Shown here in pieces: positions 5,644 through 8,947 of a stretch of DNA of 11,867 nucleotides. Numbering within the stretch: position 1 is the first letter of the stretch; every line of letters starts with the position of its first letter. The DNA is taken from IMG/VR virus record IMGVR_UViG_2740892230_000035, one strand, 5' to 3'. Below the pieces are notes generated by a model that was not told the origin of the DNA, did not search any database, and worked only from the letters and a program-made list of their open reading frames with translations. This stretch comes from a virus (Duplodnaviria > Heunggongvirae > Uroviricota > Caudoviricetes). A program made the position numbers and the translations under genes.

Positions 5644-5796
5644 TCAGCCCTCCCATATCTCGTTATCGTTGGCCACATCGCGAGCTTCTTTGCTGACGAA
5701 AGCCCACTTAATGCCTTCCTGTAAGGTGCGGAACTTCCAGCTCATGAATCCGCATGCAGTAACGCAGTACCAACCGTTGATGATTTTCCACTGCAT
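5644..5796 (-). CDS. Small hypothetical protein (50 aa), first ORF of the leftward early operon; below the supplied ORF-track length cutoff
   Basis: ATG at 5796..5794 with GAGG 9 nt upstream. Product MQWKIINGWYCVTACGFMSWKFRTLQEGIKWAFVSKEARDVANDNEIWEG. TGA stop sits 2 nt before the next ATG. Confidence 0.4.
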   Translation of the reverse strand: MQWKIINGWYCVTACGFMSWKFRTLQEGIKWAFVSKEARDVANDNEIWEG

Positions 5797-5949: not shown

Positions 5950-6534
5950 TTATTGTTTGCTTTTTTCGTTCTGGCTGATGACAAATTCAATGTAACTTTC
6001 GATCTTTGCCTTCTCTGTTTCAGGTAACAATGCGTAGCGCGAGCGGTCATAGTTGATAGTTGCAGGGTCATGCGGGTGAATCAGTAGTTCATATCCGTGA
6101 CGCCCGAATGCTGATGCAACATTCTCCAGGGTGGAAATGGAAACGCTGACCTCATTGTTTAACAGGCGGCTAATTGTCACCTGGGCGACGCCGGATGCGC
6201 GGTGAAGTTTTCCCTGTGTTGAAAGGTCGCGGCTTTCGCTCATCCAGCGTTCCAGGTTGTGAGCCGCCAGCTGACCAATGTCGCTTGGTCCGACAGGCTG
6301 AACCCCCTCCTGAGAAAGCGAGCGATCGATATCAAGCCAGTTACGGGGTTTATTGGCGGCAGCTTCAATTTTTCGCGCAACCTGGTCGCCGATAACCTTC
6401 TTGCCAAGAGCCCAGCGGTTTACCAGATTTGCCTGAGTTCCAAGTTTTTCTGCCATCCGCGTCTGAACACCATTGAATTCACGGTCGATCAAGTCGTTGA
6501 GATTTTGCCTGCGGACGTCCTGGATACTTTTCAT
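5950..6534 (-). CDS. Prophage repressor (CI-like) with two HTH-like segments and no recognisable S24 autocleavage domain
   Basis: 194 aa. N-terminal HTH-like segment (QTRMAEKLGTQANLVNRWALGKK) and a second (LHRASGVAQVTISRLLNNE). Divergent from a Cro-like gene across an operator cluster. No obvious RBS; possibly leaderless or weakly initiated. Confidence 0.8.
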   Translation of the reverse strand: MKSIQDVRRQNLNDLIDREFNGVQTRMAEKLGTQANLVNRWALGKKVIGDQVARKIEAAANKPRNWLDIDRSLSQEGVQPVGPSDIGQLAAHNLERWMSESRDLSTQGKLHRASGVAQVTISRLLNNEVSVSISTLENVASAFGRHGYELLIHPHDPATINYDRSRYALLPETEKAKIESYIEFVISQNEKSKQ

Positions 6535-6589
6535 TTTCTGGAGAATCGCCTCATATATGAATCAGTAGATGATTCAATTTAAAGCAATA

Positions 6590-6652
6590 TTACCCAACAG
6601 GTAAATGCACCCCATAGGTAACTATCCTTGATTTTTGTTACCTTATGGGTGA
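6590..6652. promoter_or_regulatory. Right operator region (OR analogue) with three 15-bp dyad sites and divergent promoters
   Basis: TTACCCAACAGGTAA (6590-6604), GCACCCCATAGGTAA (6607-6621), TTACCTTATGGGTGA (6638-6652). Candidate rightward promoter: -35 TTGTTA (6635-6640), 17-bp spacer, -10 TATTAT (6658-6663), overlapped by the third site. Confidence 0.6.
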
Positions 6653-6688
6653 ATATTTATTATCTGAAATAAATATCAGGCAATAGCT

Positions 6689-6919
6689 ATGAGCGATAAC
6701 GGACATTTCGATTTCAAAAAGCACTGGCTTGCACTTACTCCGGATGAGCGTGAAGCCTTCGCACAGGAAGCCGGAACGACGAGTCACTATATCCAGACTC
6801 ACTTAACAGGTAAGCGCAAAATGCCAGGTAAAGTATTGATGAATGGGCTTTTTAAAGCCTGTAAAACAAGACAATGGCTGCGCTCAAAAGCAGAACTGGC
6901 ATACTTCTTCTACTCATGA
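6689..6919 (+). CDS. Cro-like small HTH DNA-binding regulator
   Basis: 76-aa ORF divergent from the repressor. HTH-like segment EAFAQEAGTTSHYIQTHLTGKRK. Followed by a terminator. Confidence 0.7.
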   Translation: MSDNGHFDFKKHWLALTPDEREAFAQEAGTTSHYIQTHLTGKRKMPGKVLMNGLFKACKTRQWLRSKAELAYFFYS

Positions 6920-6940
6920 TATCCAGCCACAAACCTCTGT

Positions 6941-6965
6941 AGACCGCCATCCGGCGGTCTTTTCA
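6941..6965 (+). terminator. Rho-independent terminator after the cro-like gene (tR1 analogue)
   Basis: Hairpin GACCGCC-ATCC-GGCGGTC followed by TTTT. Confidence 0.6.
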
Positions 6966-6974
6966 TATCTATTC

Positions 6975-6989
6975 GCACCTTAAAGGTAA
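6975..6989. promoter_or_regulatory. Operator-like dyad GCACCTTAAAGGTAA between the terminator and the replication genes
   Basis: Motif-family member; shares ACCTTAAAGGTA with the site upstream of int. A TTGATC -35-like hexamer lies at 7007-7012. Confidence 0.4.
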
Positions 6990-7067
6990 TAAAAAACCAA
7001 ATCTGGTTGATCAAATTTTCCAATTGTGCAAAATAGCCAATATCAATAACAAAAAGGGGCGGAAAAA

Positions 7068-7280
7068 TTGAAGATAGTAACCAGAATGGAGGCCGCAAAA
7101 GCCGGGTTAAATCGCTATTTCACAGGAAAGCGGTGCCGTCACGGCCATCTCTCTGAAAGGTATGTTCTGAACGGAACATGTGTTGAATGTGCAATGAATA
7201 GCGCCAACCGCCATCGTAATGAATTTGCTTGTGCACTAAAGAGTGCAAGAGGGGAAACCTATGGCAAGCAGCTGGATTAA
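7068..7280 (+). CDS. Small putative zinc-binding protein (C-x-H-x-H ... C-x2-C) in the position lambda cII occupies
   Basis: TTG start at 7068 with AGGGG 8 nt upstream (in-frame ATG alternative at 7086). Product contains GKRCRHGHLSERYVLNGTCVEC. Overlaps the next gene start by 20 nt. Confidence 0.5.
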   Translation: MKIVTRMEAAKAGLNRYFTGKRCRHGHLSERYVLNGTCVECAMNSANRHRNEFACALKSARGETYGKQLD

Positions 7281-8085
7281 GGTTGAAGTTATCACTCCTG
7301 ATAAACCTGAAATTTTTCAGATAGCAGAAATTCTGGGTATTGATCCAGATGCTGTTCTTGGAAAGCTGGTTCGTATATGGGCATGGGCTGACCAGCAAAC
7401 AATAGACGGTAACGCTGGCAGCGTTACAAAAGGAGTACTTGATAGACTCGCTTTTATTACAGGATTTGCTGACGCCCTCATTAGCGTCGGATGGCTTGCT
7501 TATCATGACGGCAAACTAATTCTTCCAAACTTTGAGCGACACAATGGAGAATCATCGAAAAAACGTGCACTTACGAATAGAAGAGTGGCAGAGCATCGAA
7601 AACGAGTAACGCAAAAAGTAACGCCAACAGCGTTACAAAAGGAGTTACCAGAGGAAGAGGAAGATATATATAAAACCCCACACATAGCACACGCGCGCGA
7701 GAGTGATCCGACCAGTGAAGCGAACGGTACGCCGTTGCAGGTGGCAGAACCTGCATTTCTGGATGGCCTGAGTGAACCTATTGGGAAATTTCCGATGACC
7801 GATGGCTGGCATCCATCGCCGGATTTTCGACGGCGTGCTGCGCTGTGGGGAACGGCCCTGCCGGAACCGGAATTTACACCTGCTGAACTTGCTGCATTCC
7901 GGGATTACTGGATGGCTGAGGGCAAAGTGTTCACGCAGGTTCAGTGGGAACAAAAATTCGCCAGGCACGTAAATCATATCAGGGGAAAATCAAAAAACGT
8001 CGGGAAAAGCGATGAGCTTGACTGGAATAACACTGACTGGATAGAAGGGGTGTGGGATGAAATCAACTCCAGAACTTCTCAATGA
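7261..8085 (+). CDS. Phage replication initiation protein / replisome organizer (O analogue), probably with a DnaT-like C-terminal domain
   Basis: ATG at 7261 with AGAGGGG RBS. Sits immediately upstream of, and overlapping, the P-like gene. Contains an internal iteron cluster and an acidic linker (EEEED). Family assignment is from recall. Confidence 0.75.
   Translation: MASSWIKVEVITPDKPEIFQIAEILGIDPDAVLGKLVRIWAWADQQTIDGNAGSVTKGVLDRLAFITGFADALISVGWLAYHDGKLILPNFERHNGESSKKRALTNRRVAEHRKRVTQKVTPTALQKELPEEEEDIYKTPHIAHARESDPTSEANGTPLQVAEPAFLDGLSEPIGKFPMTDGWHPSPDFRRRAALWGTALPEPEFTPAELAAFRDYWMAEGKVFTQVQWEQKFARHVNHIRGKSKNVGKSDELDWNNTDWIEGVWDEINSRTSQ
7406..7680. repeat. Candidate replication origin inside the organizer gene: iteron-like repeats plus an AT-rich tract
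   Basis: Perfect 19-bp palindrome GTAACGCTGGCAGCGTTAC (7409-7427). 18-bp direct repeat CAGCGTTACAAAAGGAGT at 7419-7436 and 7628-7645, in different reading frames. Further GTAACGC copies at 7606-7612 and 7618-7624 and GCGTTAC at 7630-7636. AT-rich GAAGATATATATAAAA at 7661-7676. Confidence 0.5.
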
Positions 8086-8833
8086 GTACGATCGCTTACG
8101 TGAGCATGGTGTTGCTGTGCATGAAGAGCGGCGTGACAGCAATGGCAAAAAGGAGCAGGTCGCTAGAATTTTCAATGAACTATTTGTCCAGTTACAGGCT
8201 GCATTTCCTGCAAGCGTTTCGACCATAAGGGAGCAGAACAAACTTAATGAATTCCGTAAGCAATGGATGCTTGCGTTTCTGGAGAATGGGATCACTACAA
8301 TGGAACAGGTTAACGCTGGTATGCGCCACGCCCGCGCCAGTGAATCTCCGTTCTGGCCGTCGCCTGGGCAATTTATCAAGTGGTGCAAAGACAGCAAGAT
8401 GGTTCTTGGTGTCACCATTGACGATGTGATGGCGGAGTTTCACCGGTACAGCAAGGAAAAAAGTTTATATCCTGGCGGTCCCGAAAGATTCCCGTGGCGG
8501 CATCCGGTTATGTACTGGGTTGTATGTGATACCCGCCGCGCAATGTATCAGCGCCAGCTTAGCGAGATTGAGGTTGAGAAACACGCGCGCAGGTTGCTCG
8601 ATGATTGGGCGAAAAAGGTGGCTTCCGGACAGCAGATACCCGATCCGGTGATCAGCATACAGGCAAAGCCAGAACCCATGAGTACACCTCCGGACACAGG
8701 GAGAGACGTTTACCATCCACCAGGGCGAAGTTTCGGGTGCATGCCTAACGCCGCCACCCTGGGGGGAATAACACCGGCGCAGTGGCTGATGGAGGAATAC
8801 AGGCGGGGAAAGGCGGCAGGATTTATCAAGTAA
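8057..8833 (+). CDS. P: Lambda P-like replication protein (helicase loader)
   Basis: Central region (AFPASVSTIREQNKLNEFRKQWMLAFLENGITTMEQVNAGMRHARASESPFWPSPGQFIKWC) closely parallels lambda P as I recall it. ATG at 8057 with GAAGGGG RBS; overlaps the upstream gene by 29 nt. Confidence 0.85.
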   Translation: MKSTPELLNEYDRLREHGVAVHEERRDSNGKKEQVARIFNELFVQLQAAFPASVSTIREQNKLNEFRKQWMLAFLENGITTMEQVNAGMRHARASESPFWPSPGQFIKWCKDSKMVLGVTIDDVMAEFHRYSKEKSLYPGGPERFPWRHPVMYWVVCDTRRAMYQRQLSEIEVEKHARRLLDDWAKKVASGQQIPDPVISIQAKPEPMSTPPDTGRDVYHPPGRSFGCMPNAATLGGITPAQWLMEEYRRGKAAGFIK

Positions 8834-8837
8834 TACC

Positions 8838-8858
8838 AGCGCGATAGCGCATTTTTTT
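8838..8858 (+). terminator. Possible weak intrinsic terminator after the P-like gene
   Basis: Short GC stem GCGC-GATA-GCGC followed by a run of seven T. The stem is only 4 bp. Confidence 0.35.
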
Positions 8859-8870
8859 ACGCCTATATAA

Positions 8871-8947
8871 TTACCTGATGGGTAACAAAATATTCTTATA
8901 TCTATTGATTTTGTGCCTTATGTGGTTTTTAATTACCTTAGAGGTAA
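8871..8947 (+). promoter_or_regulatory. Internal operator-flanked promoter upstream of the DUF1064-like gene
   Basis: TTACCTGATGGGTAA (8871-8885) and TTACCTTAGAGGTAA (8933-8947) bracket -35 TTGATT (8905-8910), a 17-bp spacer, and -10 TTTAAT (8928-8933). The second dyad overlaps the -10 and the RBS of the downstream gene. Confidence 0.55.

Follow-up and report, generated by a model that had tools for sequence, protein, structure and literature searches.

The segment at positions 7409-7675 of the window, which is the whole 11,867-nt stretch of viral DNA analyzed here, is quite probably the replication origin of the temperate Escherichia phage TL-2011b, and it would lie within the coding sequence of the phage's own initiator gene, a reading that draws on sequence comparison and on analogy with other replicons. 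Judged by the loci aligned below, the DNA layout and this initiator domain have been kept together in several bacterial phyla. The initial annotation had proposed a lambda-style origin embedded in the initiator gene, and the comparative evidence supports that proposal, in that the sites are conserved beyond what the protein would demand; the placement of the elements also speaks for it, with the sites in a loop and a linker, a purine and A/T tract on their 3′ side, and a gene for a P-like loader next to the initiator gene. The window is 100% identical over 7000-8900 to the record of TL-2011b (NC_019445), the source of which was an EHEC O103:H25 outbreak strain. The features on which the argument is built are collected in Table 1.

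Table 1. Features of the initiator gene region of TL-2011b, in window coordinates
Feature	Position	Strand	Basis or detail
Initiator gene gp12, 274 aa	7261-8085	+	100% match to NC_019445, annotated "replication initiation protein"; PHROG 2509 at 4e-75
N-terminal domain coding region, aa 1-119	7261-7617	+	predicted helices, beta-hairpin wing, basic helix 99-119
Site cluster 1, inverted half-site pair	7409-7427	.	GTAACGC 7409-7415 and GCGTTAC 7421-7427; conserved gene offset in 76/82 loci
28-nt repeat unit, copy 1 (palindrome plus AAAAGGAGT)	7409-7436	+	repeat search, 25/28 identical to 7618-7645
Site cluster 2	7606-7648	.	half-sites 7606-7612 (+), 7618-7624 (+), 7630-7636 (-), 7642-7648 (-)
28-nt repeat unit, copy 2	7618-7645	+	repeat search, same family as copy 1
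Polypurine tract AGAGGAAGAGGAAGA, 15 nt, encodes EEEED	7650-7664	+	TL-2011b form of the (AGAGA)n tract shared by the family, next to the last half-site
Pure A/T run ATATATATAAAA, 12 nt; candidate unwinding site, mosaic junction	7664-7675	.	sequence; megablast match ends
DnaT-like ssDNA-binding domain of gp12, aa 177-245	7789-7995	+	PF17948 at 1.1e-18; PDB 6aep/4ou6/9zbt at 1e-20
Lambda P-like helicase loader gene gp13	8057-8833	+	PF06992 at 1.7e-55; PHROG 109 "P-like helicase loader"

The initiator gp12 consists of an N-terminal putative origin-binding domain, a linker, and a C-terminal DnaT-like domain. Its N-terminal 135 residues match the "replication initiation protein" family PHROG 2509, and no Pfam family matched the N-terminal domain when gp12 and 30 relatives were searched; the sole Pfam family in gp12 is the DnaT domain PF17948 in the C-terminal part. 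Against the NCBIfam DnaT equivalog NF002770, gp12 scores 94.1 bits where the cutoff is 201, and only profile positions 81-161 match. The N-terminal domain is predicted to adopt a winged-helix-like fold: an AlphaFold2 model of residues 1-135 (pLDDT 74.6) contains helices (16-25, 29-46, 57-64, 69-76), then a beta-hairpin (80-87) and a basic helix (99-119), and is disordered from residue 120 on. A search of solved structures returned generic winged-helix similarities and no close match. The gp13 gene as annotated overlaps the end of gp12 by 29 nt (8057-8085), compared with an overlap of 4 nt for O and P in lambda. This part of the window is a fine-scale mosaic whose junctions coincide with domain borders. 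The part encoding the DnaT domain (7666-7984) is matched at 84.5% by an Actinobacillus phage, phiV10-type phages are 96-97% identical over just the last two thirds of the P-like gene (8303-8898), and gp12 and the start of the P-like gene have an origin other than those phages.

On the 5′ side of the initiator gene, 340 bp (6920-7260) are unannotated in the TL-2011b record. A strong terminator-like hairpin at 6941-6960 on the plus strand, AGACCGCC-ATCC-GGCGGTCT followed by TTTCATATCT, is located in the gap that separates the small cro-side gene (6689-6919) from the initiator gene, which is the position of tR1 in lambda. Just upstream of the initiator ribosome-binding site there is an imperfect 22-nt direct repeat (7183-7204 and 7225-7246), and a small inverted repeat surrounds GTGCACTAAAGAGTGCAAG within 7183-7254; the repeats in this interval could function as an operator or in the control of translation.

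The repeated unit in both site clusters is the 7-bp half-site GTAACGC/GCGTTAC. In cluster 1 it forms the 19-bp palindrome described in the initial annotation (GTAACGCTGgCAGCGTTAC), which has perfect 9-nt arms around one central base (GTAACGCTG-G-CAGCGTTAC). The 18-nt exact direct repeat CAGCGTTACAAAAGGAGT is present, as had been described, at both 7419-7436 and 7628-7645, and extends into the 28-nt unit of Table 1; the two copies are offset by 209 nt (3 × 69 + 2) and are therefore read in different frames, again as originally noted. Three further half-sites, reported at 7606 (+), 7618 (+), and 7630 (-), are likewise there, and a sixth site with one mismatch, GAGTTAC on the minus strand at 7642-7648, continues the 12-bp register, such that neighboring half-sites within each cluster are all exactly 12 bp apart. 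Exact copies of the half-site number 6 in the 11.9-kb window, where 1.18 are expected, and 5 of them fall within 228 bp. The half-sites in the initiator gene are 150-390 bp inside its coding region: cluster 1 encodes the loop G-N-A-G-S-V-T, within the predicted loop of residues 47-56, and cluster 2 encodes VTQKVTPTALQKEL in a frame unlike that of cluster 1 and, together with the purine/AT tract, specifies the disordered linker of residues 116-138. Elsewhere, a single extra GTAACGC occurs at 5759-5765 in the leftward operon, 1.5 kb upstream, and is kept in near-identical E. coli relatives; other relatives have additional copies at other places upstream, and in L054, L062, L066, and others one of these (locus position 2441) precedes the initiator start codon by about 60 bp. 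These upstream copies are a possible autoregulatory site.

An AT-rich tract had been placed at 7661-7676. The tract is present, with 14 of 16 positions A or T, but it is short, the pure A/T run being confined to 7664-7675 and sharing one base with the polypurine run that precedes it, and the peptide encoded there (...LPEEEEDIYK) is the acidic linker that the initial annotation had remarked on. The regional GC content is not depressed, but the AT skew peaks at 0.44 in 7500-7699; it is a point against an origin that the A/T-rich stretch in TL-2011b is just 12-16 bp long and that the regional GC is not lowered. In most of the family, C(T/A)A(G/A)AGAAGAGAAGAGAAGA comes 1-2 nt after the last half-site. 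Across the family the longest purine run has a median length of 17 nt, versus 7 nt in control windows, and TL-2011b has a shorter form of the tract, AGAGGAAGAGGAAGA, plus the extension ATATATATAAAA. The arginine codons in the purine tract are AGA, a codon that accounts for 4-6% of arginine codons elsewhere in the same genes, though this comparison is an illustration only and circular in part, a purine run having been the criterion by which the tract was chosen. The tract is kept in most half-site classes, the exceptions being Vibrio phage 1.211.A, L120, and L156, with runs of 10-13 nt. In Vibrio phage 1.211.A (L169), a tandem AGAGTAGA-type repeat at about +395 to +420 of the initiator gene, 3′ of the TGTCACA sites, replaces (AGAGA)n and encodes DKSRVDKSRVD, a tract variant that is no longer all-purine. 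The conserved candidate for unwinding would be chiefly the polypurine tract rather than a simple AT block.

Relatives of the locus were compared in sets of 80 IMG/VR loci with N-terminal domains 88-100% identical, 80 loci taken from a single genome of each species (44-83% identity, GC 0.41-0.68), and 14 annotated phage records. Site densities were counted in 82 non-redundant loci (44-83% protein identity, GC 0.41-0.68) that span the Enterobacterales, Pseudomonas, Burkholderiales, Planctomycetota, Verrucomicrobiota, and others, and the counts from these loci are not independent events because the loci are phylogenetically related. The initial annotation had asked whether the repeats are lost in relatives while the protein stays, and GTAACG/CGTTAC was found at the same two gene positions in almost all loci. 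The hexamer has a density of 30/kb in the cluster 1 window and 26/kb in the cluster 2 window, as against 0.2/kb between the clusters and 0.36/kb in 242 kb of flanks, which is an enrichment of about 80-fold over the flanks at the two cluster positions. Two or more sites are present in cluster 2 in 77 of the 82 loci, and the last cluster 2 site in one relative (L088) is a perfect CGTTAC. The orientation of the sites is nearly always convergent, with plus sites followed by minus sites, and the half-site centers are spaced by 12 bp (++), 12 bp (+-), and 11 bp (--), about one helical turn. The clusters themselves are about 200 bp apart, 198-237 bp across the family with modes at 198, 207, 219, and 231, and no conclusion on helical phasing between the clusters is drawn from these distances because they are confounded by codon triplets.

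Diverged subfamilies carry another motif, which has changed in both clusters together: GTCCGCA/TGCGGAC in epsilon15, BUCT711, RPZH6, and phiPSA1, GTAGACG in the Ralstonia phage Raharianne, TGTCACA in Vibrio phage 1.211.A, GCGCAAC in the Planctomycetales contig L127, and GCGTGAC in L120. Since the motif changes in both clusters at once, one specificity determinant would read both clusters and evolve with the gene. The N-terminal domain is the one component that accompanies the sites throughout: among relatives the C-terminal domain can be DnaT-like, K-12-YdaU-like, or of another kind, the DnaT domain is absent from most family members that keep the sites, and the neighboring gene may be P-like, DnaC-like, DnaB-like, or missing. 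Comparison of these classes shows that the half-site motif changes together with the N-terminal domain. Other phages give megablast matches that stop at 7664 or start at 7666, and the junctions at these positions thus make the N-terminal domain and the sites one mosaic unit.

Most relatives encode a similar peptide in the same frame in both clusters, with cluster 2 read as GNAxSVT in the frame of cluster 1, and one could suppose from this that the repetition is of a peptide required by the protein, or else that it arose by chance. We give almost no credence to either supposition, and the codon and frame data exclude them. In TL-2011b and a minority of relatives cluster 2 is read in the other frame, as VTQKVTPTAL, and sites 11 bp apart shift the frame inside a single cluster. 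The cluster 1 half-site overlaps G-N-A, where the glycine codon is GGT in 75 of 76 loci versus 20% elsewhere in the same genes (49 of 50 versus 18% in loci with a GC content of at least 0.55) and the asparagine codon is AAC in 75 of 76 loci, so that both codons are fixed at 99%; this codon test is free of circularity. In a set of 46 distinct close relatives, 2 of 28 columns are variable in the four core half-sites versus 150 of 355 outside them, and the third codon positions are likewise frozen in the core half-sites, with 1 of 8 variable as opposed to 102 of 120 outside (p = 3.5e-5). In Rac-type genes a loop insertion of four residues (GNAECNARGVT) corresponds to exactly one extra 12-bp half-site unit. 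The enrichment of the hexamer relative to the flanks stands against a chance repeat. Taken with the co-variation of motif and domain, the codon and frame data uphold the earlier view that the repetition is at the level of the DNA and not a protein repeat, and they show, from the aligned sequences, that the half-sites are under DNA-level selection; by the same comparison, conservation of the repeats in related prophages exceeds what the protein demands. In the AlphaFold2 model of gp12 the sites map to a predicted surface loop and to the disordered linker, suggesting that they are placed where the protein tolerates sequence imposed by the DNA.

A rival reading is that the half-sites bind the initiator or some other regulator for gene regulation or copy control, by autorepression, a transcriptional roadblock, or handcuffing, with the origin located elsewhere, and this we consider distinctly unlikely. 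The iteron clusters of plasmids P1 and F have established control roles, the copy of GTAACGC located 60 bp before the initiator start codon in some relatives would fit such a role, and two separate clusters could split initiation and control between them. Against it, the sites are found deep in the coding region rather than at the promoter, cluster 2 adjoins a purine/A-rich tract at a set offset in most members, as in lambda ori, and no other repeat cluster was noticed in the parts of the window examined. For cluster 1 in particular a regulatory or copy-control reading is possible, and the role of this cluster may be control, by handcuffing or autoregulation, instead of initiation. Half-sites in such convergent arrays might also fold into an extended hairpin or cruciform, and it is conceivable, if highly improbable, that the palindromes act as secondary structure, whether as an mRNA hairpin affecting translation or stability, as an antisense terminator, or as a hairpin or cruciform in single-stranded DNA such as a primosome assembly site. 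The convergent + + - - order can be drawn as a long interrupted hairpin, a consensus scan flags the minus-strand segments 7636-7618 and 7427-7409 as terminator-like, and the DnaT-like domain recalls primosomes of the PriA type, which use hairpin sites. However, one 7-mer occupies every stem in both clusters and across phyla, where structure alone would permit free covariation, the numbers of plus and minus sites are often unequal, an Rfam search of 6500-8500 gave no match, and the members that keep the sites mostly lack the DnaT domain. The T-run after the minus-strand hairpin is missing in most relatives, and an antisense terminator was rejected as a feature, the two hits of the scan being the palindromes themselves and the T-run not being conserved.

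If the segment acts as an origin, as we favor, the N-terminal domain, with its predicted winged-helix-like fold, would recognize the 7-bp half-site GTAACGC, copies of which are arrayed convergently at one per helical turn (11-12 bp) in the two clusters. Proteins bound to both clusters, about 200 bp apart, would interact, and the DNA may thereby be wrapped or looped, with the resulting stress opening the adjoining polypurine/A-T tract (7650-7675). The DnaT-like C-terminal domain and the P-like protein would then bring the host DnaB helicase to the opened DNA. Binding by the N-terminal domain, looping, melting, and helicase loading are all inferred from the parallels with lambda O/P and iteron replicons.

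Like the TL-2011b element, lambda ori lies inside the initiator gene, between a DNA-binding N-terminal domain and a recruiting C-terminal domain, and consists of repeated sites with dyad symmetry; in both phages a P-like loader gene is next to the initiator gene, and the N-terminal domain and the origin move as one mosaic unit. Read directly, lambda ori has its iterons followed by an 18-nt purine run, AAAAGAAAAAAGAAAAGA, inside gene O, which is the same order as in TL-2011b. The likeness does not extend to the format of the sites, and here the initial annotation needs amending: lambda has a single block of four iterons, each of 18-19 bp and set 20-24 bp apart, whereas the half-sites of TL-2011b are 7 bp long, recur every 11-12 bp in convergent orientation, and are split between two blocks (198-237 bp apart across the family), and one of these clusters is inside the coding region of the DNA-binding domain itself. 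The view of the initiator as a homologue of lambda O also falls away, since neither gp12 nor its 30 relatives match the Pfam O family (PF04492) or HTH_36, hhalign gives a probability of 0.4%, and the C-terminal domain is DnaT-like, unlike that of O. Sequence comparison thus supports reading the TL-2011b element as a lambda-type origin within an initiator gene, one whose initiator is not homologous to O and whose sites are arranged differently.

Two separated clusters of one short repeat are also found in satellite phage P4, which has a bipartite origin, ori and crr, bound by its own initiator, the alpha primase-helicase. In P4, unlike in TL-2011b, the clusters are kilobases apart, the initiator is a primase-helicase, and there is no tie to a P-like loader. 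The E. coli oriC has opposed arrays of DnaA boxes, and DnaA-trios have been described in other bacterial origins; there, as in TL-2011b, two opposed arrays have about one site per helical turn, and a short repeated motif beside the last site is the start of unwinding, with the purine repeat of TL-2011b being placed alike, although DnaA is an AAA+ protein and belongs to a different protein family. E. coli DnaT (primosomal protein I) resembles the C-terminal domain of gp12, as seen from PF17948 and the structures 6aep, 4ou6, and 9zbt, but is unrelated to the N-terminal two thirds of gp12. The gene architecture recurs in DopC/DopE, a domesticated O-like plus P-like pair of the Cellvibrionales and Oceanospirillales, in which the gene for an initiator-like protein with a DnaT motif at its C-terminus immediately precedes that of a PF06992 P-like protein (Brezellec et al. 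2017, PMC5509034). No iteron-like sequences were found in dopC, and the authors concluded that dopC no longer marks the origin (PMC5509034). In contrast to the chromosomal DopC/DopE, the TL-2011b pair is phage-borne and its initiator gene carries the site clusters.

The Rac prophage was considered as a precedent, and the literature searched mentions its oriJ without a structure and calls ydaUVW uncharacterised. YdaU of E. coli K-12 matches PF07120 (DUF1376 N-domain), whereas gp12 does not, and BLASTP and hhalign detected no similarity between K-12 YdaU and the N-terminal domain of the TL-2011b initiator. With the N-terminal domain of K-12 YdaU unrelated, oriJ therefore says nothing direct on the TL-2011b element, and Rac oriJ was rejected as a precedent. 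The "Rac" variant MN652886 carries an N-terminal domain of the TL-2011b family that is 66% identical. The ydaU genes of E. coli K-12 Rac (L168) and of MN652886 (L082) share a common C-terminal half and have unrelated N-terminal domains, and the K-12 oriJ and the MN652886 origin are therefore probably of different types.

A more far-reaching proposal, which we advance tentatively and think rather unlikely to hold as a whole, is that this is a distinct, widespread, and undescribed origin design. One half of the origin would be written into the coding sequence of the DNA-binding domain itself, and the initiator would bridge the two cluster halves in the manner of P4 ori and crr. The near-invariant (AGAGA)n tract, at its set offset from the last half-site irrespective of the motif of that site, would act in single-stranded form and in a sequence-specific way, with the initiator's conserved basic helix reading it, as a phage counterpart of DnaA-trios. 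Because the family comprises at least 7207 clusters at 50% identity and extends over several phyla, its origins and their specificity classes could, under this proposal, be predictable from sequence alone. A literature search for a description of the origin of this initiator family found none, a full-text search for the purine-tract sequence gave no match, and the 15 highest-ranked of 2,665 papers that contain GTAACGC were all on unrelated work.

The layout offers a sequence-level rule for locating the origins of an initiator family that lacks Pfam coverage (at least 7207 clusters at 50% identity) and whose known hosts, for phages and prophages alike, include E. coli, Salmonella, Klebsiella, Pseudomonas, Xanthomonas, Ralstonia, and more distant phyla. 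It is also a case of overlapping codes, in which glycine, asparagine, and arginine codons, and even insertions of four amino acids, are set by putative DNA-binding sites. The half-site classes that co-vary with the N-terminal domain provide a system in which to follow the evolution of initiator-origin specificity, and they could yield compatible phage-derived replicons. Finally, TL-2011b represents a phage-borne counterpart, with its sites intact, of the domesticated DopC/DopE pair, for which the iterons are reported to have been lost.
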